Assembly (NCBI GenBank): GCA_035559815.1
Contig: DATMAT010000057.1
Coordinates: 6,359-70,358 of the forward strand
Length of the DNA: 64,000 nt
Origin: Thermodesulfobacteriota bacterium
Lineage (GTDB): Bacteria > Desulfobacterota_D > UBA1144 > Nemesobacterales > CSP1-2
Direction: 5' to 3'
The notes beneath the pieces were generated by a model. It had not been told where the DNA came from. It was given only the letters and a program-made list of their open reading frames with translations, and did no database searches. Positions 9,668 through 42,683 of the stretch are shown piece after piece. A program made the position numbers and the translations under genes. Every line of letters begins with the position of its first letter. Positions within the stretch are counted from its first letter, which is position 1.

Positions 9668-11491
9668 GTGATGAGAGCATTCAAAAGAATTAACAGATTA
9701 ATTCAAGGCGGCTCTTCTTTTCTAGTTATGATTTTTTTCTCTGTGTTGCTCTTCTTTTATCAATTCCAATCTGAACCCCCAGCCTCCAGGGCGGACACGA
9801 TAATAAAAAACGGTAAAATTGCTACGCTTAACCAAGATAATCAATTCGTTTCTGCCGTTGCCATCAAAGGGGACGAATTCATTGCAATCGGAAGTGACCA
9901 GGAAATCCTGAACTATAAAGGTCCCGATACCAAGGTGATTGATGTAAAAGGGAAGACCGTTATTCCGGGGTTAAACGACTCCCACTCCCATTTAATAAGA
10001 GGGGGTCTAAATTACAACCTGGAACTGAGATGGGATGGAGTAAGGTCTTTGAATAAAGCGCTTGAGATGCTTAGAGAGCAAGCCAAACGGACTCCAGAAG
10101 GACAATGGGTTCGTGTTGTAGGCGGGTGGTCTGAGTATCAATTTAAGGAAAAGAGATTGCCAACACTTGAAGAGATAAACGAAGCTGCGCCCGACACACC
10201 GGTATTTGTGATGTATTTATATTCTTTAGGGTTTTTGAATAAAGCAGCTATTGAGGCGCTGGGTTATACAAAAGACACAAAATACCCCGGAGGAGAGATT
10301 CAACTGGATAAAAATGGAAACCCTACAGGGCTTCTCATAGCCAAGCCAAGCGCGCTGATTCTTTATTCAACGCTTCTCAAGGGGCCAAACCTCTCTACGG
10401 AAGACCAGCTTAATTCAACCCTTCATTTCTTTCGTGAGCTCAACCGGTTTGGTTTAACCAGTTCTATAGACGCAGGCGGCGGCGGTCAGAATTTCCCCAA
10501 TGACTACCAGGTTGCCAAAAGGCTAGCTCAGGAAGGTAAGTTGACAATTCGTATTTCCTACTATCTCTTTGCCCAAGAGAAAGGAAGGGAGCTTGAGAAC
10601 TACGAAGAATGGATAAAGATAGTTAAACCCGGTCATAATGGCGATATGTTTCGCCCAAACGGATATGTAATGGAAGGAGCCGGAGAAAACCTGACCTGGT
10701 CAGCGGCCGATTTTGAGAATTTCCTGGAACCTAGACCAACGCTCTCGGAAAACATGGAAGGGGAGCTTAAAGCAATAGTTCAGCTACTGGTAAAAAACCG
10801 CTGGCCCTTCAGAATCCATGCCACTTACGACGAATCCATCGAACGTTTTTTAAACGTATTTGAGGAGGTAAATAAGGAGACACCGTTTAACGGTTTAAGA
10901 TGGACTATCGACCATGCCGAAACCATTTCTGAAAGGAATCTAAATAGGGTCAAGGCCCTCGGCGGAGGTATAGCAGTTCAGAATCGTATGATGTTTCAAG
11001 GGGAACATTTTGTGGAAAGGTACGGTGCTAAGGCCGGAGAGAATGCTCCACCAATTAAGAAGATGTTAGACATGGGAATTCCGGTAGGACTGGGTACGGA
11101 CTGTACCAGAGTTTCAAGCTATAATCCCTGGCTGGCATTATACTGGATTACATCTGGCAAGACCTGGGGGGGAACGGTTATTTACCCGGAGGAAAACCGC
11201 CTCAGCCGGGTCGAAGCATTAAGACTAATGACTGAGGGCAGCGCGTGGTTTTCCGGCGAAGAAGGTGTAAAGGGAACGATTGAAGTTGGGAAATATGCCG
11301 ATTTGGCGGTTCTCTCGGCGGATTATTTCTCCGTTCCCGAGGAGGAAATAAAAAATATTGAATCGGTATTGACTATCGTAGGGGGAAAGCTAGTCTATGC
11401 GAAAGACGAGTTCAAAGACCTGGCTCCGTGGAATCTGCCTGTGAGTCCGGCTTGGTCCCCGGTTGCCGAATTTGGCAGTTATGTAAATTAG
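9668..11491 (+). CDS. Amidohydrolase (Amidohydro_3 / YtcJ-like metal-dependent hydrolase)
   Basis: 607 aa. N-terminal TM segment, PGLNDSHSHL metal-binding motif, and C-terminal GKYADLAVLS typical of the family. Confidence 0.8.
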   Translation: MMRAFKRINRLIQGGSSFLVMIFFSVLLFFYQFQSEPPASRADTIIKNGKIATLNQDNQFVSAVAIKGDEFIAIGSDQEILNYKGPDTKVIDVKGKTVIPGLNDSHSHLIRGGLNYNLELRWDGVRSLNKALEMLREQAKRTPEGQWVRVVGGWSEYQFKEKRLPTLEEINEAAPDTPVFVMYLYSLGFLNKAAIEALGYTKDTKYPGGEIQLDKNGNPTGLLIAKPSALILYSTLLKGPNLSTEDQLNSTLHFFRELNRFGLTSSIDAGGGGQNFPNDYQVAKRLAQEGKLTIRISYYLFAQEKGRELENYEEWIKIVKPGHNGDMFRPNGYVMEGAGENLTWSAADFENFLEPRPTLSENMEGELKAIVQLLVKNRWPFRIHATYDESIERFLNVFEEVNKETPFNGLRWTIDHAETISERNLNRVKALGGGIAVQNRMMFQGEHFVERYGAKAGENAPPIKKMLDMGIPVGLGTDCTRVSSYNPWLALYWITSGKTWGGTVIYPEENRLSRVEALRLMTEGSAWFSGEEGVKGTIEVGKYADLAVLSADYFSVPEEEIKNIESVLTIVGGKLVYAKDEFKDLAPWNLPVSPAWSPVAEFGSYVN

Positions 11492-16597: not shown

Positions 16598-16623
16598 TAG
16601 AGACGCAACATTTTGCGTCTCTA
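16598..16623. repeat. 11-bp-stem palindromic hairpin (TAGAGACGCAA-catt-TTGCGTCTCTA)
   Basis: Read directly. Lies 33 nt after the esterase stop with no U-tract. Same GTAG...CTAC style as the palindromes at 22129, 41451 and 53393. Confidence 0.5.
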
Positions 16624-16733
16624 TAGTACTAGAAGGTCTGAATTCGATTGTTTGCCTAAGTTAAATTTTCTAAGATATTATTTATCGATATAGAAAAGCA
16701 AAATTGTTCATAATAAGAGATTGATTGTCAGAG

Positions 16734-16866
16734 TTGGCCTGATGGTAATCAAAGGACTTCAATGACGTATAAATAAGAAGCAACCCCTCTTTAATTTTCC
16801 CCTTACCGAGGGGGGAAACACAAGGGGGGATAGAAAAACTATTTGAACTAACAGGGTTAGGACAGC
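16734..16866. repeat. ~130-bp hairpin-containing repeat element, compact copy
   Basis: TTGGCCTGATGGTAATCAAAGGACTTCAATGACG...CAACCCCTCTTTAATTTTCCCC-ttaccgag-GGGGGAAACACAAGGGGGG...TATTTGAACTAACAGGGTTAGGAC. The two halves recur at 30952-31017 and 31285-31335. Confidence 0.55.
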
Positions 16867-16979
16867 GTTTGCATAGCAAACAAAAAAGAGGGTAACCTGA
16901 TTTTAAAAAGATGCTGTTATTATCTAAAGGCCTTGTTTTACGAGTATGAATCGTTAGTTTCTAATTATTTTGGAAAGCA

Positions 16980-17711
16980 GTGATGGAAGAGGAAATTCAA
17001 AAGGCAAAAGAAATACTTAGAAACGCACGTGGGATTACCGTCCTCACCGGTGCGGGTATTTCCGCGGAAAGCGGTATTCCCACCTTTCGCGGAGAAGACG
17101 GCCTCTGGAAGAAATATAACCCTGTAGATGTGGATACCGCCGACGGCTTTAGACGGAATCCCCAGTATGTGTGGGAATGGTATAACGGCTTAAGGGAACT
17201 CATATCCACGAAAAAGCCAAATCCAGCCCATCATGCCCTTTTCAAACTGGAAAAGATAAAACCCTATTTTAGCATCATAACCCAGAACGTGGACGACCTT
17301 CATCGGGTCTCCGGAAACAAGAATATAATCGAATTACACGGCAACATCTTTCGGACCAGATGTGTTGAATGTTTACATGAAGAAGAAAACCGGGAGGTTC
17401 CGTTAGCCGAGATACCTCCACGCTGTAAAAAGTGCGGAGGACTACTAAGGCCTGCCGTTGTGTGGTTCGAGGATTACATTCCACTACCAATAATAGACTC
17501 ATGTCTTTTATCGATCGAGAATTCCGACGTAATGCTTATTATTGGGACTTCCGGATTGGTAGAACCTGCTGCTTCGATGGGCCTCGTAGCTAAGCATATC
17601 GGAAAGACGGTAATCGAGGTAAACCTGGAGGAGTCCACCCATTCTCAGAAGTACGACCTGGTTCTTTTGGGAAAAGCGGGAGAGATCTTACCAAGAATTA
17701 TCCCTGACTGA
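16980..17711 (+). CDS. cobB: NAD-dependent protein deacylase (Sir2 family)
   Basis: 243 aa. GAGISAESGIPTFRG, QNVDDLH, and a zinc ribbon CVEC...CKKCGG. Confidence 0.85.
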   Translation: MMEEEIQKAKEILRNARGITVLTGAGISAESGIPTFRGEDGLWKKYNPVDVDTADGFRRNPQYVWEWYNGLRELISTKKPNPAHHALFKLEKIKPYFSIITQNVDDLHRVSGNKNIIELHGNIFRTRCVECLHEEENREVPLAEIPPRCKKCGGLLRPAVVWFEDYIPLPIIDSCLLSIENSDVMLIIGTSGLVEPAASMGLVAKHIGKTVIEVNLEESTHSQKYDLVLLGKAGEILPRIIPD

Positions 17712-17739
17712 ATAGGTTTATTATCTCTTTTTACCAACG

Positions 17740-18340
17740 GATATAAATCCGCTCATACTGAGCTTGTCGAAGTATGAATTTAACACATAAGGTGTTCGTC
17801 CTTCGATAGTTCGACAAGCCCACTACTCAGGACGAACGGATTGGTTGCTTTTGTCCTCTATCCTATTCTTTCTTCATGGTGAGCCCTTGGACTTCGCTTA
17901 GAGCTTGTCCTGAGTAAAACAAAGGAATAAACTCATGCGAAGGAGCTTACTAGGAATCTGACAGAAGTGTCATTTCGGATGAACATGAGGAATCTTAAAC
18001 AATTTCATTACTAAGATTCCTCCCTTCGGCTGGAATGACAACCGGGTCTGATTACCTCTTAAAAGAATTTATCCCTGCCTGCCTTCCTTCCATGTCATTG
18101 CGAACGTTCCAGTTCCCTGACTTCCTCCCTCTTGATCGCTACCCCCAGATCCCAGCGAAGCAATCTCGCTTTTTTCAAGGGATTGCTTCGTCGTGGAATT
18201 TATCCTGAGCCTGCCGAAGGACTCCCTCGCAATGACACCCAAAAGCATTCCAAGTCTCCACTCTCACCACTTGCGATTACCTACCGTCCCTGTCATTGCG
18301 AGCCGCCGTCTTTTGGCGGCGTGGCAATCTCTTATTTTGA
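17740..18340. repeat. 600-bp non-coding tract packed with MITE-like inverted-repeat elements
   Basis: Example at 17969-18039: GTCATTTCGGATGAACATGAGGAATCTTAA...TTACTAAGATTCCTC...GGAATGAC. GTCATTGCGA/TCGCAATGAC pairs lie at about 18093, 18226 and 18291. Relatives occur at 30.4-31.3 kb. Confidence 0.55.
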
Positions 18341-18439
18341 ACAAGTTTGATTTGCTAGAAAATTTAACCCCCGTCCTTGCCCACCGAACCTAAGCGTAAG
18401 ACATCAGTAATATCCTCTCAATTTAATCATCCTTATTGC

Positions 18440-18465
18440 GGAAATTTTTTGAAACTTTTCGTCTA
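18440..18465 (+). promoter_or_regulatory. ECF-sigma-type promoter motif, copy a
   Basis: GGAAATTTTTTGAAACTTTTCGTCTAAG. GGAA, a 16-nt spacer, then CGTCTA. Ends 37 nt upstream of the GGDEF gene ATG. Confidence 0.5.
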
Positions 18466-18502
18466 AGACTGGCTAAAGGATCAAAAAGGAGGGTGATGGG
18501 AG

Positions 18503-22128: not shown

Positions 22129-22156
22129 GTAGGGGCACATTGCAATGTGCCCCTAC
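22129..22156. repeat. Perfect 28-bp palindrome GTAGGGGCACATTGCAATGTGCCCCTAC
   Basis: Read directly. Starts 6 nt after the YVTN gene stop. Related copies at 41451 and 53393. Confidence 0.7.
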
Positions 22157-27398: not shown

Positions 27399-27468
27399 AA
27401 TTTCGGATTTCGGAATGCGGATTTAAGTATTTCTTCCGTCCGCAATCTGCAATCCGAAATCCGAAATT
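27399..27468. repeat. Inverted arrays of 7-bp repeats forming a long imperfect hairpin
   Basis: Left side: AATTTCGG ATTTCGG AATGCGG ATTT. Right side: CCGCAAT CTGCAAT CCGAAAT CCGAAAT T. The outer 16 bp (27399-27414 and 27453-27468) are perfectly complementary. Sits between the CHAT stop and promoter motif c. Confidence 0.55.
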
Positions 27469-30344: not shown

Positions 30345-30399
30345 ATTCAAGTAGCGATTATGTTTCATCCCTCTACTCAATATTTTCATCAGAAGACAG

Positions 30400-30700
30400 G
30401 ATTAGTTCTAAGAATGAAGCACCCCGCGGCAAGCCGCAGTGTATCAATACATACGCATGTACTCTAACGCGACATTGCGAGAGTTGCGATGCAATATGTT
30501 TAGATTCCTCACGTTTGTTCGGAATGACAAAAGCGGTTTTGCAGTCTCGGAAACGCAAATAGGGTTCTGTCATTTCGAAGGGAGAAATCTTAGTTTTTGG
30601 GAAACCTTTTGTCACATTGCTTCGTCGCGGAGTCTATCCTGAGGAAATCGAAGGACTCCTCGCAATCAGCGGAAACTCTGTGGCAAGCCACAGCGAATTC
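30400..30700. repeat. MITE-like repeat tract
   Basis: Contains AGATTCCTCACGTTTGTTCGGAATGAC, GTCATTTCGAAGGG and TTGCTTCGTCGCGG...CGAAGGACTCCTCGCAAT (compare 18170-18235), plus small hairpins GCGGCAAGCCGC and TGTGGCAAGCCACA. Confidence 0.5.
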
Positions 30701-30720
30701 TCAAGTTAAATTCATCAGAG

Positions 30721-30746
30721 GGAAATATCCATGAACTTTTCGTCTA
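30721..30746 (+). promoter_or_regulatory. ECF-sigma-type promoter motif, copy e (orphan)
   Basis: GGAAATATCCATGAACTTTTCGTCTAGT. No credible ORF for ~720 nt downstream. Confidence 0.4.
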
Positions 30747-30951
30747 GTACTTACGTAAGACAGGGATGATAAATCAGAACTAAGGCAACTACATACTCTC
30801 CAAACCTCCTGGCCGGCGCCGTTCCTCGCCCCATCGAACACGGCGCTGGCTGGCTAAGAAAGCTTGAAGTACCGGACAGTCAAATATGCTTTAATCTCGT
30901 CTTAAAGGTGGTTAATTATCCTCGCTCCCGGGTCAAGATGTTTTTATTAGC

Positions 30952-31335
30952 TTGGCCTGAAGGTAATGAAAGTACTTCAATGACGGAATAGGAAAAAGCA
31001 ACCCCTCTTTAATTCTCGTCTCAATAAGCCTGTCCTAAGCCCAGTCGAAAGGGCTATATCAAGCACGGTCGAAGGGTTGAAGTATGTCGATTTTGTCATT
31101 CCGAGTCTTGTCCCGAACTAACGTGAGGGAGCTTGCCAGGAATCTTAAGTAATAGCTTACTTATCTTCCTAACCAATACCTTAAGATTTCTCACGTTCGT
31201 TCGAAATGACATCCTCACTCTTTAATCCCACCTATAGACCCGCCCTGAGCATGCTCGAAGGGGCTGCCCTTAGGAGTCAAATTAGGGGAGAATACAAGGG
31301 GGTAAGAGGTTATTTAACAAATAGGTTCAGGACCG
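30952..31335. repeat. Second copy of the 16734-type element, split by a ~267-bp nested insertion
   Basis: Left half 30952-31017 and right half 31285-31335 align with 16734-16866. The hairpin loop is replaced by 31018-31284, which itself contains a GTCATTCCGAG...CGAAATGAC element at 31095-31210. Confidence 0.55.
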
Positions 31336-31472
31336 GTCAGGGCTGAAAATGGCAGGGTAAGAAATGATCCCTCCGAATAACAAATTACCCAAGCTCAGGA
31401 GCTTCACCAAAGATTGAAATTTCCGATTACCAATGTAATTTTCTAGGGGTAAACTCGCTGGGTAAGCACTTA

Positions 31473-33179: not shown

Positions 33180-33536
33180 TTATTGGCAAAACTTATCTAC
33201 CGTACAAATATCATAGGTATCACAGAAAGGCCCCCATGAAAACGGCCAGCAATCCGTCACCGGGGAACATTTCTTTGCACACCTACCGCTGCTACACTGA
33301 TTATTACTCTCGCACCGGCTCCCTCTGGGGAGATTACTACCGGAGGGTGGTGGGGGTTGGTCAGCACCTCCGTTCCCCACAGGCCTACTAAAAAGCCACT
33401 GAAGGAGTTGGTCCAAAAATTGCGGACTAACCACATCTCCCGGCAATAGTGAACGTGAGGATCTCTGTTGGTAGTAACCTCTTGTTTTATATAGCGATAC
33501 CTCCGCTGTAAACCCTGGAAGTGTAGATATTCTCAT
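33180..33536 (-). CDS. Leader-bearing Cys-rich protein P9 (118 aa)
   Basis: AAGGAGG Shine-Dalgarno. N-terminus MRISTLPGFTAEVSLYKTRGYY. C-terminal 8-Cys region CESNNQCSSGRCAKKCSPVTDCWPFSWGPFCDTYDICTVDKFC. Confidence 0.7.
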   Translation of the reverse strand: MRISTLPGFTAEVSLYKTRGYYQQRSSRSLLPGDVVSPQFLDQLLQWLFSRPVGNGGADQPPPPSGSNLPRGSRCESNNQCSSGRCAKKCSPVTDCWPFSWGPFCDTYDICTVDKFCQ

Positions 33537-33620
33537 CTTGGTTGCCTCCTTTTAGCCTAGATTTAACTTCGGCCGTCCTAATAATGCCATATTAGCAGCT
33601 AAGATTGCAAATTGATGACC

Positions 33621-34094
33621 CTAAACAAAACAGATGCCCCCATATCCGGGTAGCGTCACAGTGGAACAGGACGCACCGACAAAGGGAATCGGAACACAAA
33701 TTCTATTTCTGCAGAGGCAGGGAGTAGTAGAGAAAAATGTCATAATTGCAGTTCCGGCGATCTGTCCCGATACGCTCGATGTGCGTGCTATAGCGCCCGG
33801 CATATATGCAATCAAGTTACGATCACATTGGCAATCAAGATATCCGCGGCGACCGTAGCAGAGGTCATGTTCCCTACATACTGCATCGACTGCGTCTATG
33901 GGCGGTGTATTTCCGGTTGGATCACCGAATCCGGGCCCGCAGTAATTGCCGTAAACCGGGACGCTGAGTTGTTGCGGCAATACCGGATCTTGTTTGGAGC
34001 GTAGGTTTATCTTTACGCCTTTATTGTCAATGCCGTAACGCTTTATTTGCCTGCCTAAGCTGGCCTCCGCTTTAAATCCTGGCACCTTGTTCAT
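33621..34094 (-). CDS. Leader-bearing protein P8 with a phospholipase-A2-like domain (157 aa)
   Basis: AAAGGAG Shine-Dalgarno. N-terminus MNKVPGFKAEASLGRQ. YCGPGFGD, then about 17 aa, then CREHDLCY, which is the secreted-PLA2 Ca-loop and His-Asp motif arrangement. Confidence 0.7.
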   Translation of the reverse strand: MNKVPGFKAEASLGRQIKRYGIDNKGVKINLRSKQDPVLPQQLSVPVYGNYCGPGFGDPTGNTPPIDAVDAVCREHDLCYGRRGYLDCQCDRNLIAYMPGAIARTSSVSGQIAGTAIMTFFSTTPCLCRNRICVPIPFVGASCSTVTLPGYGGICFV

Positions 34095-34118
34095 TTCATT
34101 CAACTCCTTTTTTTGTAT

Positions 34119-34925
34119 TCACCGGTCGTAGTAAGGTGACATCTTTGTAACCAAGAACGGAAACTCCGACCACAAAAGCGCAATGGCACCTGTTACAAAT
34201 GGGGCTGCAGCACTAGTTTCTCCAAATGTGAGCGACTTGCCATTAGCCCCGAGGCTGGTAATGTTGTCGCCGGGAGCGCTTAGACCTCGCTTTCCGATAG
34301 AACTTCCTAGGTTCGAGTAGTTAATCGGTCTACCTTGAAGGTCGCAGGCAACAACCGGAATAACCCACGTGTGACCGGTAACGGCAGAACTTCCGATAGT
34401 CCCCTGATTCCCAGCCGCCGCAACAACAATAACACCACCCCTTGCAGCATAATCTAGAGCCTTTTCTAATTCGCGCTCACCTTTAGATGATGGTTGTGCA
34501 AGTGCAGCGCTTAGGTTTATTACACGCGCACCTGCATCAATGGTCTCTATGATTGCCCCTGCAAGCTCCTCTGGGGTTGCGCTTGGCAGGGATTTAGCGG
34601 GCTCACCCCAGGTCTGTCTGTTTCCCGATGCCCTCTCTGAAAAAATGGGACGTACAAGCAGTGTGCAATCAGGACAGATTGCCGGAGCTAGAGAACCCCT
34701 CCTACCGCACAAGATGCCTGCCACAAACGTCCCATGCATACAGGCAGCACTGCTTGCTACGGTGTATGTCCCATCCAGTTTTCCAGGAACCTCGCGGATA
34801 TTTTCACCTGTAAGGCTGGGATGGTTAATTATGATGGGGCCATCTATTAACCCAACTGTAATTTCGGGTCTACCGCTTGTGAGTTCCATCAATGCTGTGA
34901 GCTTGACCACATCCAAAGGATTCAT
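34119..34925 (-). CDS. Subtilisin S8 peptidase, second copy, C-terminally truncated and fused to the tail of the PatG-DUF-like gene (possibly decaying)
   Basis: 268 aa, highly similar by eye to the peptidase at 41599-42495 up to LLWSEFP. It then ends FLVTKMSPYYDR, identical to the last 12 aa of the protein at 40062-41006. GLIDGP, HGTFVAG and AAAGNQG are kept, but the Ser motif reads GETSAAAP (Gly to Glu). No obvious Shine-Dalgarno. Confidence 0.65.
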   Translation of the reverse strand: MNPLDVVKLTALMELTSGRPEITVGLIDGPIIINHPSLTGENIREVPGKLDGTYTVASSAACMHGTFVAGILCGRRGSLAPAICPDCTLLVRPIFSERASGNRQTWGEPAKSLPSATPEELAGAIIETIDAGARVINLSAALAQPSSKGERELEKALDYAARGGVIVVAAAGNQGTIGSSAVTGHTWVIPVVACDLQGRPINYSNLGSSIGKRGLSAPGDNITSLGANGKSLTFGETSAAAPFVTGAIALLWSEFPFLVTKMSPYYDR

Positions 34926-35001
34926 AGTTTCATCTATGAATCCTTGTTTAACCGAAAATTCCCATTTTAAATAAACTTGTTTATATCTAAGCCTTTCCTA
35001 G

Positions 35002-35283
35002 TGCCATTGTCTTACAAAGAATAGGTTATTGTCAAGGAAAATTTTTTCTCCCTACTTTACTTCTGAGGAAGATGAAAATTACGTAGATACTGTAAAATTT
35101 TTGAGAATGTAGAAAGAGGTGAGTTAAAAGCTATAACAAGCAAAGTCCCCGACTTCACTCAGATAGCTGTAGGAGTTTTGAGGAAGGTGAGAACTTTTCT
35201 TACAAACGATCTGGATTTCAAGGAAATAGAGAGCATAAGAGTTATACAATTAAGTAACTTTAAAACGGTCAAGCAACCTTAAA
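35002..35283 (+). pseudogene. Degraded PIN-domain (VapC-like) remnant
   Basis: Open frame without a start codon reads ...ERGELKAITSKVPDFTQIAVGVLRKVRTFLTNDLDF. The PIN-like ending KEIESIRVIQL is only reached after a 1-nt shift in an A-run near 35220. The N-terminal catalytic region is absent. Confidence 0.3.
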
Positions 35284-35512
35284 TGTCTTTCCGATAAGAA
35301 CGAGTCCTTCTAACTCTTCTCTCTCAAGCTTTCTTCTAATCTCGTCAAATTTCCTTACAGTATCGGGTGCGTAGAATCTCTTACCACATTTTAGACATAC
35401 CTCAAGCCATAACCCTAAGAACTGCCGTGTTAGTTCCACCTCATAGGAGCTTATCAACTTCCTTTTCGACGATTTCCCCTCCACACACAGGACATTTATC
35501 AAATAGCTTCAT
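35269..35512 (-). pseudogene. YgiT-type zinc-finger (MqsA-like antitoxin) gene with an internal frameshift
   Basis: ATG at 35512 overlaps the upstream stop as ATGA and encodes MKLFDKCPVCGGEIVEKEVDKLL, then stops at 35441-35443. The second zinc knuckle (EVCLKCGKRFYAPDTVRKFDEI) continues in another frame, which is the listed ORF 35269-35502. Confidence 0.5.
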
Positions 35513-35847
35513 CCCTTTGTTAAAACCTCAATAATATTTTTCATATTCTCAAATACTTCTTCTACCGATGGCTCTTCACACGGCACATGCTTTCCTGCCT
35601 CCCCAAAGGGATGATAGTGCCATCCCTTCAGATTATCAATTCCATAAATCCTCTCGTTCTTATGTATCAGTGCAAAATCTTTCCTTTCAGTCTCACAGTT
35701 AGCATAAATGTCTATCAGTAAATCTTGTTGAAAAGTAATTCGAACATATAGGTGAGTATTTCGAACTATATTGTATTGAAGCGTAACTAGAGGGAAGAAT
35801 TTCTTAGAGGCGTTATTTATCTCTTCTAAGAAGCGATTTAAATCCAA
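35509..35847 (-). CDS. DUF6516/TumE-like putative toxin
   Basis: 112 aa. RIYGIDNLKGWHYHPFGEAGKH resembles the DN..H.HP...H core I associate with TumE-family proteins. Translationally coupled to the zinc-finger gene. Confidence 0.4.
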   Translation of the reverse strand: MDLNRFLEEINNASKKFFPLVTLQYNIVRNTHLYVRITFQQDLLIDIYANCETERKDFALIHKNERIYGIDNLKGWHYHPFGEAGKHVPCEEPSVEEVFENMKNIIEVLTKG

Positions 35848-35859
35848 AAAGGCACCTTT

Positions 35860-36189
35860 CTACTCTAGGTTTTTAAGTAGTTCAAGCCATTTTTTCTTCT
35901 CAGCCTCTAATCCTTCCCAGACCATGTAATGCCTCTCTACCCGATGAGAGTACTTGTTCTCTATTTCTCCTCTCTCCCAGGCATCTGCAAATTCATTAAA
36001 GGTGCTCCCATATTTTACCTCAAACTTGTAAATTTCCTCTTCACATTCCCGGAGACGCCTAGCCAGATCAGACTTTATCAATTTGAGTATTTTTTCTCCC
36101 GGTGTATCTCCTTCAACATAATCGAAAAATTCGAGTATCTCTTTAGATAGGTCTAACGTAGGCATCTTATTTTCCTTATTTTGACTCAA
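35860..36189 (-). CDS. Hypothetical small helical protein in the TA islet
   Basis: 109 aa, 12 nt upstream of the TumE-like gene. No recognisable domain. Confidence 0.35.
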   Translation of the reverse strand: MSQNKENKMPTLDLSKEILEFFDYVEGDTPGEKILKLIKSDLARRLRECEEEIYKFEVKYGSTFNEFADAWERGEIENKYSHRVERHYMVWEGLEAEKKKWLELLKNLE

Positions 36190-36245
36190 TTAACTACACA
36201 GATTCTACCTTCCTATAATGACAAATGTCAAAAAACTAACTCCAT

Positions 36246-36539
36246 CTAGTGTTCTTCTCGTTCTGCGACAAAGTCCGCCTGTGGTGAGCAAAGTCGAACC
36301 ACTGTCAGCGAGCCAGGAATCTTCGAGAGAGCTTTCCTCACCGCCTCGAGGCTTATGCTCTCATCCACCTCGGCGGCATAGAGTTGCAAGCATTCGACAA
36401 CTAGCCATTCCTCCTCCGAAGGGATTGCTGGCAACTTAGACACGATTAAGGTGACGCGCTCGTGCTCACGGAGGTCAAGCGGTTCCAGCAGACGTAATAC
36501 ACCATTCTCATAAACCGCTTCAAGCCTTTTACTCATCAC
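36246..36539 (-). CDS. DUF104 (AF2212-like) antitoxin-family protein
   Basis: 97 aa. N-terminal LEAVYENGVLRLLEPLDLREHERVTLIV is the typical DUF104 motif. Confidence 0.5.
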   Translation of the reverse strand: MMSKRLEAVYENGVLRLLEPLDLREHERVTLIVSKLPAIPSEEEWLVVECLQLYAAEVDESISLEAVRKALSKIPGSLTVVRLCSPQADFVAEREEH

Positions 36540-36681
36540 GTACCTCTTTTACCCAAGACTTGTCCTGGCGTCTACTTCTTTTATCCCTCTAAGCCGTGCC
36601 CTAAGGCGACATCTTGGCGACTAGGAATAAGAACTTCTCAGCTAGATCTTAAATAACCACCTCTTCTCTCTGCAGTTGATC

Positions 36682-36930
36682 TCAGAAACAGATCCAACGG
36701 CAGTATCCACCCCAATGAGGCAGGCACACCCGGACGCATGAGGGCTCCACAATAGGCCACCGAAGCAAGTCTGGCCTAAAGAACTGTGTATCTGTGAAGA
36801 GCAATTGCGCTGGATATATGGTTACGTTAGCTTGGTTCAGAAGAGTGATCATCTGGTAATGTTCACTTGTCTTATAGAGTGATACTTCTGCGGTGAATCC
36901 CGGCATCTTCATCTGGTTCATTTTATTCAT
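36682..36930 (-). CDS. Leader-bearing Cys-rich peptide P7 (~82 aa; start uncertain, 36930 or 36921)
   Basis: N-terminus MNKMNQMKMPGFTAEVSLYKTSEHYQ. Putative core after IYPAQ is LLFTDTQFFRPDLLRWPIVEPSCVRVCLPHWGGYCRWICF (4 Cys). Confidence 0.7.
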   Translation of the reverse strand: MNKMNQMKMPGFTAEVSLYKTSEHYQMITLLNQANVTIYPAQLLFTDTQFFRPDLLRWPIVEPSCVRVCLPHWGGYCRWICF

Positions 36931-37029
36931 CCCCACTTCAACAAAATTTTTTGACCTCACTTCCGCTAGGAGATATGTCGTTGCACTTAGTAAATCGTTT
37001 TTCACCCTCCTTAATCAGAGAGCGAAGAG

Positions 37030-37995
37030 TCAGACCGGGATACAACGCCCCGAATCGAAGAGGCAAGTCCAACCAGGTGGACAGCCACTGTTGCCACAAC
37101 ACGACCAACCCGGCGGAGCACACTTTGTGCCATTAGCACAGCAGGAGTGACCAGGCGGGCAGCAACCCCGCCCGCAACACACAGGAGCCCACGACGGACA
37201 GCAATGGTCGCCACAACACCGCTCACCAGATACGCAGCAGCGGTTGCCACAAGTCTGACCCGCCGGGCAACAACCACCGCCGGTGCATACTTCTCCTGGC
37301 CCACAGCAGTGATTGTTACAGACTCGACTAGGTGGACAGCAGCCCTCGATGGTGCACTGCTCTCCCGGAGCACAGCGACGGTTATTGCAGACTCGATCTG
37401 CAGGAGCACAGCCGTCCAGGGTGCACACTTCTTCCGGCGCACAACAACGCTCGTTGCAGACTCGATCTTTAGGGCAGAAGCCGTCCCTAGTGCACTGCTG
37501 CCCATCTGGCACATAACAACCGAAACCGAAGCAGCATCGTTGACCTGGCGGACAGCAGCTTAATGTATATCCGGTTGCCGTTTCATTAAGGATGTGGCAG
37601 CATTCATGGTCTCCCGGGCAACATTCCGGACGCTTTCCGATGCGCCCGCACAACTTCATTTCAGGTGGACAGAGAGGAGGAATGAACTCGCATTGGACCA
37701 AGCACTGTACTCTGCATTCATCACGCAGAATCGCGATTGGAACATCCGGATTATCAATGCGTCCAGCTTTGACGCAGGCACCTACGCAGCGATCAACACA
37801 GGGTTTTTTATGGCAATATTCCATGCACTGATGGTCAGGGTGGCCAGCCCTGAGGCAATCGTCCATACAACGATTCACACCGTTGTATGCCGGGTATATA
37901 GTCTCATTCACTTGGCTAGAAGTCCCAATAGTATAGTAGTGCCCGCTCGTTTTATAGAGTGACCCTTCTGCGGTAAATCCTGGTATCTTGTTCAT
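37030..37995 (-). CDS. Leader-bearing giant Cys-rich repeat protein P6 (321 aa)
   Basis: N-terminus MNKIPGFTAEGSLYKTSGHYY. About 58 Cys by my count, with CCPPG..CC motifs. Three tandem 23-aa units RVCN..CCAPEEVCT.DGCAPAD are also visible as repeated TTGCAGACTCGATCT at nucleotide level. Confidence 0.75.
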   Translation of the reverse strand: MNKIPGFTAEGSLYKTSGHYYTIGTSSQVNETIYPAYNGVNRCMDDCLRAGHPDHQCMEYCHKKPCVDRCVGACVKAGRIDNPDVPIAILRDECRVQCLVQCEFIPPLCPPEMKLCGRIGKRPECCPGDHECCHILNETATGYTLSCCPPGQRCCFGFGCYVPDGQQCTRDGFCPKDRVCNERCCAPEEVCTLDGCAPADRVCNNRRCAPGEQCTIEGCCPPSRVCNNHCCGPGEVCTGGGCCPAGQTCGNRCCVSGERCCGDHCCPSWAPVCCGRGCCPPGHSCCANGTKCAPPGWSCCGNSGCPPGWTCLFDSGRCIPV

Positions 37996-38064
37996 TTAAT
38001 TCGCCCCTAATTTCAATCATAATATGTCGTGCCTAATCACGGCCTTCACCCGGGTGCATAAGGT

Positions 38065-38388
38065 CTAAGTTCGAGTAGGGCTGCATCCTTTGAGGCATTC
38101 TCGATAATTCTCATCGCAGATAATACAGTGGGTAGATCCCTTCGGGTTTTCAGGCGTGCCTTCACAACCCTCCAAACACAGGACCCAGGCTATATAGCAA
38201 AGACCTCTACAAAGCGAACGCCCGATCCCGCCAAAAAGCCCAGAACCGGGCGATACAGGTAATGGATTAATAGTCAGTTGAGAAATAACTCTTTGCCCAC
38301 AGTTGCTATAAGCTTGCATCGCTATAGACTGGTACTGCTCACTCGTCTTATAAACCGATGCCTCTGCTGTGAATCCCGGTGTTTTCAT
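38065..38388 (-). CDS. Leader-bearing Cys-rich protein P5 (107 aa)
   Basis: N-terminus MKTPGFTAEASVYKTSEQYQ. C-terminal region LCRGLCYIAWVLCLEGCEG...HCIICDENYRECLKGC. Confidence 0.7.
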   Translation of the reverse strand: MKTPGFTAEASVYKTSEQYQSIAMQAYSNCGQRVISQLTINPLPVSPGSGLFGGIGRSLCRGLCYIAWVLCLEGCEGTPENPKGSTHCIICDENYRECLKGCSPTRT

Positions 38389-38441
38389 TTCATCAACCCC
38401 CATTTATTTCAGATTATCCCTACAGCAGCCGACCTAAACCC

Positions 38442-38693
38442 TTAGGCCATTCCCCCGCCACCACAGACCCCAAAGCACGCACCGCACGTCAAAAAATCTC
38501 CTGGGTCTGGCACAGGCGACATAACAAGGAAAGCCGCACAGGCTAGGCAAGCGGTCATGCAAAACCTGCTTCTGAACATCGCCGGAACGATCCCACTTTC
38601 TTTCATATCCGAACTATAAGAAACCGTATATCGTCCAGTAGACCTGTATACAGAGGTTTCTGCAGTAAATCCAGGCAAATTCATTTTACTCAT
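38442..38693 (-). CDS. Leader-bearing Cys-rich peptide P4 (83 aa)
   Basis: GGAGGTG Shine-Dalgarno. N-terminus MSKMNLPGFTAETSVYRSTGRY. Hydrophobic Cys/Gly-rich core FCMTACLACAAFLVMSPVPDPGDFLTCGACFGVCGGGGMA. Confidence 0.7.
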   Translation of the reverse strand: MSKMNLPGFTAETSVYRSTGRYTVSYSSDMKESGIVPAMFRSRFCMTACLACAAFLVMSPVPDPGDFLTCGACFGVCGGGGMA

Positions 38694-38748
38694 TTTATTC
38701 ACCTCCTTCACACATTGTTCAAAACCGAGATGAGTGCAGTAATCGGTC

Positions 38749-39126
38749 TTACCAGCCGAACCCGACACCTAGCTCGGTGTCGCAGGTCGTATCTGGCACG
38801 TCCCATTCACCCCAAATATTAAACCAAGTGTTTTTACACCGGTCTGGAGGCCGACCTTCAAGACCCGGAGTCGTTCGACAAGCTTCTTCCCACGATACGC
38901 CCCAAGGGATACCCCACAATATGGCTGAAAACTGTCGCCGTCCGCAGCCTGACCCTTCCGTCCACCAACAGCCGCGCTTAGTACAGTGATCTCTCTTGAA
39001 GCTACCCCAGGTCTGGGCCGGCACAAGGCGTCCCATTTCCGTCGGCATGTACTGAAAACCCGCTCGATACTGATGGCTCCCGCGATATAGCGAAGCCTTT
39101 GCGGTAAATCCAGGTATTTTGTTCAT
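38749..39126 (-). CDS. Leader-bearing Trp/Cys-rich protein P3 (125 aa)
   Basis: GGAGGTG Shine-Dalgarno. N-terminus MNKIPGFTAKASLYRGSHQY. The core has 6 Cys and many Trp (GCWWTEGSGC...ILWGIPWGVSWEEAC...NTWFNIWGEWD). Confidence 0.7.
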   Translation of the reverse strand: MNKIPGFTAKASLYRGSHQYRAGFQYMPTEMGRLVPAQTWGSFKRDHCTKRGCWWTEGSGCGRRQFSAILWGIPWGVSWEEACRTTPGLEGRPPDRCKNTWFNIWGEWDVPDTTCDTELGVGFGW

Positions 39127-39177
39127 TTCATTCACCTCCTTTTTTCACTCCCTCACCAGACCCTAGAGACCGAACAC

Positions 39178-39588
39178 TCAGATCAGGGTGCAGAAAGAAG
39201 GACTACATCCTATGAAGGGTGCACATATTCTCCTGCACTTTGTCCCCGCCGGACAACAGCCCTCGTTATTACAGCAGGACGTACCGGGCGGGCAACAACC
39301 ACGAGCACAGCAAGGATGACCAGGGGGACAAGAGTGGGTGCCGCAGTTGGGTCGAGGTGGAGGAGGTGGGGGTGGAGTACAAGATACTTCTTTACAAATA
39401 GGTCCTCCTGTTTCTGGGTCATATCCAAAGCAACAGGTCTTCTGCCCATTTTCACATGGCGTGCACCCTTTAATCTGTTGTAGTACTAAGCCGCTAACTG
39501 ACTTGCTAGTCCAAGTCGATTCAAGCGCATAAATCCCAGCCGTCCTGTAGAGCGAAGCCTCTGCGGCAAATCCCGGCATTTTGCTCAT
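39178..39588 (-). CDS. Leader-bearing Cys/Pro-rich protein P2 (136 aa)
   Basis: GGAGGTG Shine-Dalgarno. N-terminus MSKMPGFAAEASLYRTAGIY. The core has a poly-Pro tract PPPPPPPRP and CCPPGTSCCNNEGCCPAGTKC repeats similar to P6. Confidence 0.7.
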   Translation of the reverse strand: MSKMPGFAAEASLYRTAGIYALESTWTSKSVSGLVLQQIKGCTPCENGQKTCCFGYDPETGGPICKEVSCTPPPPPPPRPNCGTHSCPPGHPCCARGCCPPGTSCCNNEGCCPAGTKCRRICAPFIGCSPSFCTLI

Positions 39589-39657
39589 TTGACTCACCTC
39601 CTTTCTCTTTTTCCTCCGTCCGTATAGAATTCACCTGATAAACCGCCGCGGTCTCAA

Positions 39658-40026
39658 CTAGTCAATCGCTACCAAGCTGTCAACACAGTCACGCCACGGC
39701 TCACTTGCCGGCACCCAACCCCAATAGCAGCCAGGCGGTTCAGGACAGATCTTTGCATACTTAAACCATTGGCATATCCGGCACTCGGTTTGAAAAGTCA
39801 GACCCCAAAATTTCCATGTGCTGGTCGTTTTATCCCAGCACAATTTTTTCATCGTAAACACTACGCCCGGCATTGATGTTGGCACGTCAACGGTAGATAG
39901 TGTGCCCATCAGTCCCTGGGTAAGAACCAACGCACCTACTCTCACGCCTGCACGATTCGGGGCTACTGCATAGCTCATGGCTGATTTGTAGAGCGAGACC
40001 TCTGCTGTAAACTCAGGCAATTTCAT
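39658..40026 (-). CDS. Leader-bearing Trp/Cys-rich protein P1 (122 aa)
   Basis: GGAGGTGA Shine-Dalgarno. N-terminus MKLPEFTAEVSLYKSAMSY. Core LCWDKTTSTWKFWGLTFQTECRICQWFKYAKICPEPPGCYWGWVP...DC. Confidence 0.7.
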   Translation of the reverse strand: MKLPEFTAEVSLYKSAMSYAVAPNRAGVRVGALVLTQGLMGTLSTVDVPTSMPGVVFTMKKLCWDKTTSTWKFWGLTFQTECRICQWFKYAKICPEPPGCYWGWVPASEPWRDCVDSLVAID

Positions 40027-40061
40027 TTCCTTCACCTCCATTCAATTGAATCCGGTCGACC

Positions 40062-41006
40062 TCACCGATCATAATACGGCGACATCTTTGTAACCAGGAA
40101 CGGAAACTCCTCGGTCACATCCACACGGGTAAAGAACTTCTCGGTAACGTCCGTCTGACGATTGGTGAAGGAGAAAATGACATCTACAACCTTGCGTGTG
40201 CCGCTGAGAGGCGAATGACGAACTTCTACCGCTGTCAAAGAAGAGTTTTGAGCAAAAGCCTCCGCAGCTTTAGCATAGATGGCGTTGTATCGTACTGCCA
40301 GATAGTTTAAAGCACGGTGGTCGTCAGTGGCTCCGGCATTGTCAGCTATCTGCATTATCCTCATGAATAGCTCCTCTGCTGCTGGGGTGAACTCCTTTGC
40401 TGACATCTTTTCCGGCTTAGGAATAGATTTGATTAGAGAATCGATATCGAATGAATACATCTGGTCGAACACAACAATAGGCACCATGAGTCCATTGCAC
40501 ATCTCTGGCGGGGCGATTGGCCCTCTCATGCCAATAACCACATCAACATCAGTGGGGCGTGGAGCGGGACGTAAGGCCTCCACTAACATATCCAGGTCCG
40601 CAGGGTCGCGCGGCACCAGAATGTATGTCTCCAAACCCTCAATGGTTAAAACCCAGCACATCTGTCTCACCAGGTAGCGGTTCTGTCTATGGGTCAGAAC
40701 CTTGTGGAGTGCCTCTCGGTCGGTAAGCCCGGCTGTCTTTTCCCGCCCTGTAACTTGGGCGAATTCCTTCTCCACAGCTAAACGAGGAAAGCGGGCCTCG
40801 ACCCTGCCCAGGGCATAAACGAAGCTGGGTGTAACTCCGCCATTTGACCCGGTGGAGCTTCCGCATGTAGGACACCCTCCCCCTCCAGCTTGGGTGGGAA
40901 GAATAGTTCCAGTACGACTTTCAGAAGAGGATACTACTGTTGGTGAGTCTTTCACGTTAACGGCTTGCTCTCCCATCTGTTCCTTCGATTCAACATTTTC
41001 TTCCAT
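40062..41006 (-). CDS. Protein resembling the C-terminal DUF of cyanobactin proteases PatA/PatG (PatG_C/PatG_D-like)
   Basis: 314 aa from the ATG preceded by AAGGAGGAG. FVYALGRVEARFPRLAVEKEF, CWVLTIEGLETYILVP, LMVPIVVFDQMYSF, DHRALNYLAVRYNAIY and FTRVDVTEEFPFLV follow the motif order I recall for the PatG DUF (VYALG..GYDFG.EARRD.F ... DRALNF ... DVS..PV). Recalled from memory, not verified. Confidence 0.5.
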   Translation of the reverse strand: MEENVESKEQMGEQAVNVKDSPTVVSSSESRTGTILPTQAGGGGCPTCGSSTGSNGGVTPSFVYALGRVEARFPRLAVEKEFAQVTGREKTAGLTDREALHKVLTHRQNRYLVRQMCWVLTIEGLETYILVPRDPADLDMLVEALRPAPRPTDVDVVIGMRGPIAPPEMCNGLMVPIVVFDQMYSFDIDSLIKSIPKPEKMSAKEFTPAAEELFMRIMQIADNAGATDDHRALNYLAVRYNAIYAKAAEAFAQNSSLTAVEVRHSPLSGTRKVVDVIFSFTNRQTDVTEKFFTRVDVTEEFPFLVTKMSPYYDR

Positions 41007-41199
41007 GATATTTCTCCTCCTTTCAGGATAGATTTCAAAGGCTTCATAATTAGCCACAAAGACTCAAAGGAAATTGTTAACGAGTTAGCTTACGCCTTTT
41101 GTCGTGTTAGCGAGTTTGCGTGTTATTTTTCTAGCTCGTAAACCAGCAAACACGTTAACCCGCAAACATTGTTTCTTTGTGCCTTGGTGGTTTATATTT

Positions 41200-41418
41200 T
41201 TATCTCGAACGCCTGCCAGAGAAAACCAGCCAACCGTTGAGTGTGGAGGCGCGACGTTCACATCCGCCACACGGTTTAATCCCAATAGTAGACGTGACTC
41301 GCTTAATCGCATCACCCAGTCCAATTTCCTCATCGCTAATGAAACCAGGAAGACGAACCCGGTAAGGCTGTCCTTTAGTCTTACTTCTTTGACCATTTCT
41401 TGTTTCTTCCTTTTTCAT
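41200..41418 (-). CDS. Small basic protein with an LPGF motif and a C-x-x-C pair (72 aa)
   Basis: AGGTGA Shine-Dalgarno. MKKEETRNGQRSKTKGQPYRVRLPGFISDEEIGLGDAIKRVTSTIGIKPCGGCERRASTLNGW. Lies between the S8 and DUF genes. Confidence 0.4.
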   Translation of the reverse strand: MKKEETRNGQRSKTKGQPYRVRLPGFISDEEIGLGDAIKRVTSTIGIKPCGGCERRASTLNGWLVFSGRRSR

Positions 41419-41450
41419 GACATTCACCTATGTTACGCAAATATACATTA

Positions 41451-41477
41451 TAGGGGGACGCTGCAGCGTGCCCCTAC
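41451..41477. repeat. GTAG...CTAC-type palindrome copy (TAGGGGGACGCTGCAGCGTGCCCCTAC)
   Basis: Read directly. Imperfect relative of the palindromes at 22129 and 53393. Confidence 0.6.
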
Positions 41478-41496
41478 CTAAGTTGAACGCACAACT

Positions 41497-41569
41497 GTCA
41501 TTCCCGCACGCTTATGGATACCCCACAGCTCCCCGATAACTACATTCGGGGACAGGATTCGGGTATGAC
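41497..41569. repeat. MITE-like element (GTCATTCCCGC...ATGGATACCCC...ACATTCGGGGAC...GGGTATGAC)
   Basis: Same family as 15686-15802 and 45647-45716. Inserted between the S8 gene and the small ORF. Confidence 0.6.
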
Positions 41570-41598
41570 AATGTAAAAAAGCGAATAACGTGAGATAT

Positions 41599-42495
41599 TC
41601 ACCTCCTTAAACCAGACCTTATAATCTGATACGCCCCCCATGCATCAAGCAAGGGTGGAACTACCGTATTTCTCCTTCGCCCGTTCGACCGTGTAATCAC
41701 GACTTTCATATCAGCACCGGTAGCTTTTGGGAACTCTGACCAAAGCAGCGCAATAGCCCCCGTCACAAAGGGAGCCGCAGCGCTCGTTCCGCTGAACGTG
41801 AGTGGTTTGCCATCGGCTCCGAGGCTAGTAATGTTGTCGCCGGGGGCGCTCAGACCTCGTCTCCCTATCGAATTTCCCAGATTGGAGTAACTAATCGGTC
41901 TACCCTGAAGGTCACAGGCAACGACCGGGATAACCCAAGGGTGACGGGTGATAACAGTGCTACCAACTGCTCCCTGATTTCCCGCCGCTGCTACAATCAA
42001 AACGCCTCTCTTTGATGCATAATTCAAAGCCCCTACTAACTCTCGTTCACCTGTGGAAGATAGCTGCGCCATAGCTGCACTCAGGTTTATCACGTGCGCT
42101 CCCGCATCAATGGTCTCGATTAATGCCGCTGCTAGTTCATCGGGAGTGGTACTGGGCATGGGCTCTAGATGCTGGCTGCGGCTATTTCCATTTCCTGACA
42201 TCGTCTCAGCAAAAATAGGACGCACCAACAACGTGCAATCAGGACAGATAGCCGGAGCTACAGAACCCCTCTTTCCGCACAAAATTCCTGCCACGAATGT
42301 TCCATGCAAACAGGCGACACTACTTGCCTGTGCACATGCACCCGCAAGTTTTCCAGGGACCTCACGAATGTCTCCACCTGAAAGATCCGGATGGTCTAAT
42401 AACACGGGCCCGTCAATCAGACCAACTACTATCTCTGGCCTCCCGCTGGCAATATCCATCAAAGCGGTGAGCCTGATTAAATCCAGATGATTCAT
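41599..42495 (-). CDS. Subtilisin-family S8 peptidase without a signal peptide (PatA-like)
   Basis: 298 aa from ATG 42495 (GAGGTGAGG Shine-Dalgarno). Catalytic contexts VGLIDGPVLLDHP (Asp), CLHGTFVAG (His), AAAGNQG (Asn) and FSGTSAAAPFVTG (Ser). No hydrophobic N-terminus. Confidence 0.8.
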   Translation of the reverse strand: MNHLDLIRLTALMDIASGRPEIVVGLIDGPVLLDHPDLSGGDIREVPGKLAGACAQASSVACLHGTFVAGILCGKRGSVAPAICPDCTLLVRPIFAETMSGNGNSRSQHLEPMPSTTPDELAAALIETIDAGAHVINLSAAMAQLSSTGERELVGALNYASKRGVLIVAAAGNQGAVGSTVITRHPWVIPVVACDLQGRPISYSNLGNSIGRRGLSAPGDNITSLGADGKPLTFSGTSAAAPFVTGAIALLWSEFPKATGADMKVVITRSNGRRRNTVVPPLLDAWGAYQIIRSGLRR

Positions 42496-42683
42496 GCGTG
42501 GATTCCTCACCTCAACCCAGTGATAGGAGTTAAAAACTAGATAAAGACTAAAGGAGAACGAGTACTTACAGTTAATCTTTCAAGTGAGCAGAAATAAACA
42601 ACCGGCGGTTATCGTTAATAACCTGATGTTGTGGACAGAAGTTGCTTAGGCTCTTTATAGTTATTGCTCTCCCTCTCAGGGTG

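Follow-up and report, generated by a model that had tools for sequence, protein, structure and literature searches.

An acyl-CoA synthetase gene of an uncultured Thermodesulfobacteriota bacterium is probably preceded by a pile-up of non-autonomous repeats, in which a decayed MITE (denoted O) carries a block of about 250 bp (denoted M, with an inner palindrome, Z) at the tip of its hairpin. The copy of O in this spacer is called copy B. A complete copy, copy A, lies elsewhere in the window, which is the whole 64-kb stretch of DNA analyzed here. Copy A provides the most noteworthy result, a clean insertion of O at the start codon of a Sir2-family gene that is polymorphic between 95%-identical strains. 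O is mobile, because it occupies seven independent loci, is flanked by 9-bp target duplications, and has an empty site; its ends and its target duplication are defined.

The picture of nested repeats at a hairpin tip, first read from the sequence alone, is essentially correct as to anatomy. The repeats make up a new set of unnamed families of well-known kinds, namely MITEs, REPIN-like palindromes, and nested small repeats. A lineage known from metagenomes only is found to hold unnamed miniature mobile repeat families, at least one of them recently active. The inserted O now provides the whole 5′ leader of the Sir2 deacylase gene, and spacers of stacked repeats mislead gene callers and regulatory-motif searches. 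The hairpin of O, as a hot spot, raises the question of whether palindrome tips are chosen by enzymes or simply happen to be the sole place tolerating damage. The current understanding of bacterial mobile DNA is unchanged by these findings.

The O family and its insertion at the Sir2 start codon

The O family is a 284-bp repeat with seven independent loci and two fragments in the source MAG and related JGI metagenome contigs. Copies were retrieved by scanning the JGI contigs with a degenerate pattern from the conserved core. The matches comprise the orthologue of copy B (L006, identical in sequence to L002), the orthologue of copy A (L013), and five more copies with unrelated flanks (L008–L012); the match in L007 lies inside an antitoxin gene and was set aside as chance. 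The copies are alignable across ~284 nt, and a profile built from five full copies recovers full copies at E values of 1e-77 to 4e-94. The profile also matches a fragment at 10513–10624 of L012 and, with positions 1–25, a solo left end on the minus strand at 18325–18352, 3′ of the Sir2 gene (reverse complement TCAAACTTGTTCAAAATAAGAGATTG). Self-comparison by blast pairs 16691–16723 with 18357–18325 at 88%, and the solo end is present in L023 as well.

O starts with CAAACTTGTCCAAAATAAG and finishes with TTATTTTGGACAGCAGTG, giving ends of the form 5′-CA...TG-3′. Its terminal inverted repeats are 18 bp long and match at 14 of the 18 positions (CAAACTTGTCCAAAATAA versus the reverse complement of the right end, CACTGCTGTCCAAAATAA). 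A 9-bp target duplication is present at three loci: copy A, L009 (ATACCTCCT, 9/9), and L012 (AGCTACAAA / AGCTGCAAA, 8/9); the copy in L008 has no flanking target duplication. Copy lengths run from 254 to 304 nt, with indels not divisible by 3 in L011 and L012. The stop-free stretches vary between 54 and 87 codons; O has no conserved open reading frame and, at its size, has no room for a transposase gene. A sequence-only reading of this DNA had placed the outer element at 16734–16866 with a size of ~130 bp, which is only its core.

Copy A is complete, spanning 284 bp on the plus strand (16699–16982; ends CAAAATTGTTCATAATAAG... and ...TTATTTTGGAAAGCAGTG; profile positions 1–285, E 4e-93), with inverted ends and the 9-bp duplication. 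The left duplicate, ATAGAAAAG (16690–16698, plus strand), has decayed at 2 of 9 positions. The right duplicate, ATGGAAGAG (16983–16991, plus strand), is also codons 1–3 (Met-Glu-Glu) of the Sir2-family gene, whose product contains the Pfam PF02146 domain (E 1e-49). Contigs with the empty site were reached through Sir2 homologues in synteny. L023, whose flanking genes share ~95% identity with those of the window, has an empty site that reads ATCGAT-ATGGAAGAG-GAAATT, and the filled site of the window reads ATCGAT-ATAGAAAAG-O-ATGGAAGAG-GAAATT; an unduplicated ATGGAAGAG is also found in L017. This shows that copy A inserted exactly at the Sir2 start codon and duplicated ATGGAAGAG. The ATG of the upstream duplicate has since been lost through decay.

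The insertion has also changed the sequence in front of the start codon. Copy A and its counterpart in L013 end in GGAAAG, the other O copies in GGACAG, and a Shine-Dalgarno-like motif therefore stands 5 nt before the Sir2 ATG. The empty site of L023 (AATCGAT-ATG) has no such motif. The flanking genes of L013 and the window are only ~89% identical, but the two have the inserted O in common together with an identical 75-nt stretch 5′ of it (window about 16620–16982 compared), whereas the closer relative L023 has the empty site and a divergent stretch upstream. This distribution suggests either that the filled allele moved by recombination between lineages or that O was precisely lost in L023.

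The center of copy A is a hairpin block at 16784–16829 (plus strand) with an outer stem of CCCCTCTT/AAGGGGGG and an inner stem of TTCCCC (16797–16802) and GGGGGG (16810–16815) closing the loop TTACCGA. Its DNA fold of −10.3 kcal/mol (z −1.5) is unremarkable by fold alone.

O seems to be confined to a narrow lineage, whose nearest named relatives are Candidatus Dadabacteria. There were 0 matches across 185,579 reference genomes, none in 43 kb from an 82–87% relative (L014 and L016, from one metagenome), and 0 in the IMG/VR viral-contig collection, and a plasmid blast with copy B as the query gave no match. Literature searches with the repeat termini as text returned unrelated primers only, and the literature on MITEs and small dispersed repeats held nothing specific to this lineage. 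In two of the loci, the stop codon of the upstream gene falls within the first 26 nt of O (L009 3231–3256, L010 3190–3215), where it is the TAA of CCAAAATAAG; those reading frames thus terminate in sequence contributed by O.

Copy B and the block at its hairpin tip

Copy B lies in the spacer 5′ of the acyl-CoA synthetase gene and is split into two parts. The left halves of the two window copies (16734–16799 and 30952–31017) are 85% identical over 66 nt (blastn, E 2e-16), and the match reaches 31028 when copy B is compared with other O members by blastn. The right halves (16810–16866 and 31285–31335) are ~70% alike, which is too weak for blastn, and that of copy B was recovered by the family profile only (positions 87–168, E 3e-7). 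The flanking halves are thus homologous beyond short motifs, as had been proposed from the sequence. The left part (30952–31028, plus strand, profile positions 36–112) closes with the arm CTCGTC (31015–31020), the loop TCAATAA (31021–31027), and G 31028; the right part (31285–31335, plus strand, profile positions ~113–168) opens with the arm GGGGAG (31285–31290). Compared with the consensus CCCCCC/GGGGGG, a C-G pair has become T-A in these arms, and their pairing is preserved. Detectable O homology of both copy B and L006 ends at an internal GGAC(A/C)G motif resembling the true right end, so copy B is a short version of O or one that has decayed.

In L002/L006, the orthologue of copy B retains profile positions 3–35 as well. 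There the whole hairpin block is absent, and CTTTAATT is joined directly to ACAAATAGG. In the window, 81 nt at 30871–30951 stand in place of the first 35 nt of O still present in L002. Within these 81 nt, CTTTAATCTCGTCTTAA (about 30893–30910) is similar to the left arm and loop specific to copy B (31007–31024; 16/18, p about 0.02) and may be a stray duplicate of the copy B hairpin half. L014, which has an 82% orthologue of the acyl-CoA synthetase gene, has no O, and it shares with the window only 31410–31453 in this spacer, presumably the native promoter region. Scanning both spacers for promoters and terminators yielded nothing informative. Because O is missing from L014 and copy B is present in the ~89% relative, copy B inserted between those two splits. 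No empty site for M is found in either, L014 being without O and the only orthologue of copy B (L002/L006) being without the hairpin.

Junctions of the block were mapped by split alignment of copy B to the O consensus. The left junction is sharp, at 31027/28|29, 3′ of both the arm CTCGTC and the loop TCAATAA. The right one falls within 31277–31284, immediately 5′ of the arm GGGGAG, and placements with a duplication of 0–7 nt score equally. The insert is therefore 249–256 nt long and sits at the 3′ edge of the hairpin loop. The sequence-only reading had the loop replaced by about 267 bp; an insertion at the hairpin tip is what the alignment recovers, of smaller size and beside the loop rather than in its place.

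The middle block M (31029–31279, with the right limit at 31276–31284) has the ends CCTG-TCCTAAGCCCAG and CTGCCCTTAGGA-GTCA. As the same reading had it, the insert is bounded by inverted ends, since TCCTAAGCCCAG (31033–31044) and CTGCCCTTAGGA (31264–31275) are complementary at 10 of 12 positions. By our own estimate, the chance of such an inverted match so near both junctions is ~0.004. M is flanked by AATAAG (31023–31028) and AATTAG (31280–31285), a likeness that extends up to 9 nt with a gap. These flanks are possibly a decayed target duplication, with alignment scores equal with or without it; if they are taken as one, the inverted ends lie 4–5 nt inside both junctions. Parts of M also resemble O. 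The first 18 nt of M agree at 15/18 with O 151–169 read as the reverse complement (p 0.013), and CTCTTTAA-TCCCACCT matches O 88–105 (p 0.003), both values being before correction for 8 tests; the similarity is no more than suggestive.

A different parse of copy B, given by nhmmer, was considered and ruled out. It consists of a ~200-nt insertion flanked by a CTCTTTAAT duplication (31005–31013 and 31218–31226) together with a 43-nt insertion in the loop. The left half matches the O family through arm and loop to 31028; GGGGAG pairs with CTCGTC at 31015–31020 and not with CCCACC at 31227–31232; and the inner CTCTTTAATCCC pairs with GGGTTGAAG within M.

The inner element claimed earlier is present in the insert. 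Z spans 31094–31211 (TGTCATTCCG...CGAAATGACA) and forms one long hairpin (−18 kcal/mol, z −4.0). A second, shorter copy at 17968–18040 (TGTCATTTCGG...GGAATGACA) also folds as a hairpin (−14.1 kcal/mol, z −5.0), and a further copy is found at L008 4120–4236. Two half-sites facing apart occupy 30500–30595 (right arm 30500–30529, left arm about 30567–30595), a single arm stands at L013 9569–9598, and a scan of IMG/VR found a half-site on one viral contig. Copies and half-copies are spread over the window, L008, L013, and L015. Full members have two inverted arms, each ~30 nt long, on either side of a variable center, and solo arms occur too; all are extragenic, and three copies show no target duplication. 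GTCATTNCG occurs 8 times in the window versus 1.8 expected, all within two spacers. These observations show that Z is a member of a dispersed palindromic repeat family.

Z is centered in M, with 65 nt on its left and 64–68 nt on its right. We estimate the chance of this at about 0.04, and the centering is suggestive. When Z is removed in silico, its junction lies within the apical loop of a local M stem (GGGTTGAAG/CTCTTTAATCCC). A second copy of M was found neither in the window and related loci (roughly 270 kb) nor in the IMG/VR viral contigs, and for this reason we only infer that it is a separate element and that there were hence three insertion steps. Neither an M lacking Z nor a copy B lacking M was found, and the order and number of events are therefore not demonstrable. 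Of the successive nested insertions first proposed, the mobility of O and the separate, dispersed nature of Z hold; M is a putative element.

The hairpin as a hot spot and the origin of the stack

The O hairpin is clearly a hot spot for insertions, deletions, and substitutions, with all large structural changes in the family lying in or beside it. In the window, the hairpin of copy B has the M and Z insertion, and in L002/L006 the entire hairpin block is gone. L012 carries 26 extra nt in the left hairpin arm, an insertion containing a CTGAGC..TCGAAG-type unit that is also present in M, and L011 has lost 28 nt immediately 3′ of the hairpin. Between copy A and L013, 14 of the 22 differences fall in 38 of 283 nt, within the hairpin block (binomial 7e-8). 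Targeting by an enzyme, fragility of a G/C-run palindrome in replication, and tolerance of change are candidate causes that these data do not separate.

A preference for hairpin loops had been suggested for the inserting elements. Both nested junctions do lie at tips or loops, but there are only two or three events, and other insertions fall elsewhere. The L012 insertion is in a stem arm; an insertion specific to the window relative to L023 (about 18107–18152, 46 nt) lies within a GTCATTGCGA-type palindrome 5′ of the stem and not in its loop; and another (17735–17827) is not obviously in a loop. An active choice of the loop by the inserting machinery, as opposed to simple tolerance of inserts there, would be an inference.

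In the favored reading, O would have landed as a 284-bp miniature inverted-repeat element in the spacer 5′ of the acyl-CoA synthetase gene, before the split from the ~89%-identical relative that also carries copy B. A DDE-type transposase whose gene lies elsewhere in the genome must act on it in trans. Terminal inverted repeats and the 9-bp duplication are the reason to place O among DDE-type MITEs and not with IS200/IS605, elements that have no inverted ends, no target duplication, and subterminal hairpins. In the window's lineage, the ~250-bp block would then have entered the tip of the central CCCCCC-N7-GGGGGG hairpin of O. The block would be a palindromic shell, M, with inverted ends and with Z at its exact center, and M and Z would have come as two separate events. 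The hairpin may be a structurally fragile or permissive spot where changes accumulate. The transposases can be named by conjecture, the parent enzyme of O presumably being IS4/IS5-like, as guessed from the 9-bp duplications and the ends. A transposase search, as had been advised, found none of any kind encoded in the 64-kb window, no Y1 or RAYT gene among the open reading frames tested, and no autonomous partner of O in the window.

It is possible, if doubtful, that the ~250-bp block entered as one piece, either as a pre-assembled composite repeat or as repair or template-switch filler after replication stalled at the G/C-run hairpin or the hairpin was cut. The nested look would then be how palindromes grow and not a record of successive targeted insertions. 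M is unique in all DNA examined and mosaic-like, combining O-like bits in both orientations, three TCGAAGG-type motifs (family D1), and Z. Its target duplication is ambiguous, and an extra copy of the B-type left arm may exist at about 30893–30910. The deletions and dense substitutions in the hairpins of other copies likewise point to general instability rather than a specific integrase. Against entry in one piece are the inverted ends of M, placed symmetrically 4–5 nt inside both junctions, the position of Z at the center of M, and the clear occurrence of the Z family alone elsewhere.

An unlikely alternative is that a Y1/HUH enzyme (IS200/IS605 TnpA or RAYT) moves the palindromes as single-stranded hairpins into exposed loops. 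Such an enzyme would suit Z, a near-perfect palindrome without target duplication at three copies, whose single arms alternate in orientation as in REP/REPIN sequences, and both nested junctions lie in loops. It suits O poorly, since O, and possibly M, has terminal inverted repeats and target duplications, and IS200/IS605 elements have neither. Neither a Y1 transposase nor a RAYT is encoded in the window, and neither the stem-arm insertion in L012 nor the one at about 18107–18152, 5′ of a stem, went into a loop. The IS200/IS605-type mobilization proposed at the outset is accordingly contradicted for O and possible only for Z. We would also give little credence to a more specific proposal, that the G/C-run hairpin of O is a dedicated landing pad where a structure-specific enzyme layers palindromes (O > M > Z) and causes the variability by repeated cutting.

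The reading of O as an immobile, conserved cis-regulatory leader (RNA or operator) of the Sir2 and acyl-CoA synthetase genes, with a hairpin tolerating inserts, is very improbable and was rejected: although the plus-strand genes that follow the two window copies encode a protein deacylase and an AMP-forming acyl-CoA synthetase, which share a pathway, and 5/5 independent copies with known context are oriented like the downstream gene (p only about 0.06), there is an empty site with a 9-bp duplication, the flanks and downstream genes are unrelated (Sir2, acyl-CoA synthetase, ECF sigma factor, thiolase, asparagine synthase), no Rfam match was obtained, RNAalifold gave 1/70 compensatory pairs with an unfavorable covariation term, and L014 has the 82% synthetase orthologue without such an element.

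Known counterparts and the surrounding spacers

Bacterial MITEs include the Correia elements of Neisseria, Nezha of cyanobacteria, RUP, and ERIC. O is like them in being small and non-coding, with inverted ends, a fixed-length duplication, dispersed intergenic copies, and a central hairpin, and in inserting beside gene starts and becoming part of the 5′ leader. It differs from the named families in having no sequence similarity to them and no identified parent insertion sequence, in its 9-bp duplication (TA for Correia elements), and in its host, an uncultured Thermodesulfobacteriota/Dadabacteria-like lineage.

Heterocyst-forming cyanobacteria reportedly contain nested MITEs and small dispersed repeats of 21–27 nt (Elhai et al. 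2008, Genome Res). Very small repeats also sit inside other repeats here, but the sequences and the phylum differ. A 23–30-nt CTGAGC...CGAAGG unit is variably present in the L012 hairpin, in M, and in the second Z copy, whose right arm has the unit (CTGAGCATAGCGAAGG) in L023 and L013 and not in the window. The CTGAGC..TCGAAG motif is not enriched in the window (3 occurrences versus 1.15 expected).

REP and REPIN sequences are moved by RAYT and usually have a GTAG-type REP head. Z resembles REPINs in its two inverted short arms of ~30 nt, variable center, single arms, extragenic location, and lack of target duplication; unlike them, it has no GTAG-type head, and no RAYT gene was seen in the 64-kb window. 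A RAYT/HUH-type mechanism is possible for Z, as is another. IS1397/ISKpn1 and IS110-family elements insert into REP palindromes, and IS231A (IS4 family) prefers GGG-N5-CCC targets. M is comparable to these elements in that the center of a short palindrome was hit and that a duplication may span the loop in CTCGTC-N7-GGGGAG. Those elements are autonomous and have tested specificity, whereas M represents one event with an ambiguous duplication.

Presence and absence differences between the window and the 95%-identical L023 reveal recent small-repeat activity in the lineage. The spacer between the Sir2 and GGDEF genes (17712–18502), at 791 nt, is longer in the window than in L023 (611 nt) or L017 (231 nt), and small palindromes of the GTCATTGCGAG...CTCGCAATGACA and CTGAGCTTGTCGAAG types are patched together in it. 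Relative to L023, its blocks at 17735–17827, about 18107–18152, and about 18205–18270 are found only in the window. Near copy B, about 409 nt of small repeats at 30388–30796 are absent from the orthologous spacer of L002/L006. They comprise the two Z half-sites, two GYGGCAAGCCRCAG hairpins, and a GATTGCTTCG-type element that also occurs at 18182–18233 and in L013.

Two other palindromes follow genes in the window. One is a perfect 28-nt palindrome at 22129–22156, just after a gene for a 772-aa beta-propeller protein, and the other is an imperfect 61-nt palindrome at 27400–27460, after a CHAT/TPR gene. Each is probably a terminator or another small repeat.

Downstream of copy B, a block at 33180–42510 separates the acyl-CoA synthetase gene from luciferase-like and radical-SAM genes; the synthetase gene sits directly beside the luciferase-like gene in L014 and L003. 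The block contains PatG-like domains, a phospholipase-A2-like open reading frame, and about ten small open reading frames of 100–140 aa that share repeats. Its two S8 subtilase genes (34119–34925 and 41599–42510) are 73% identical over 770 nt, and the whole has the look of an inserted gene cluster for a cyanobactin-like peptide.
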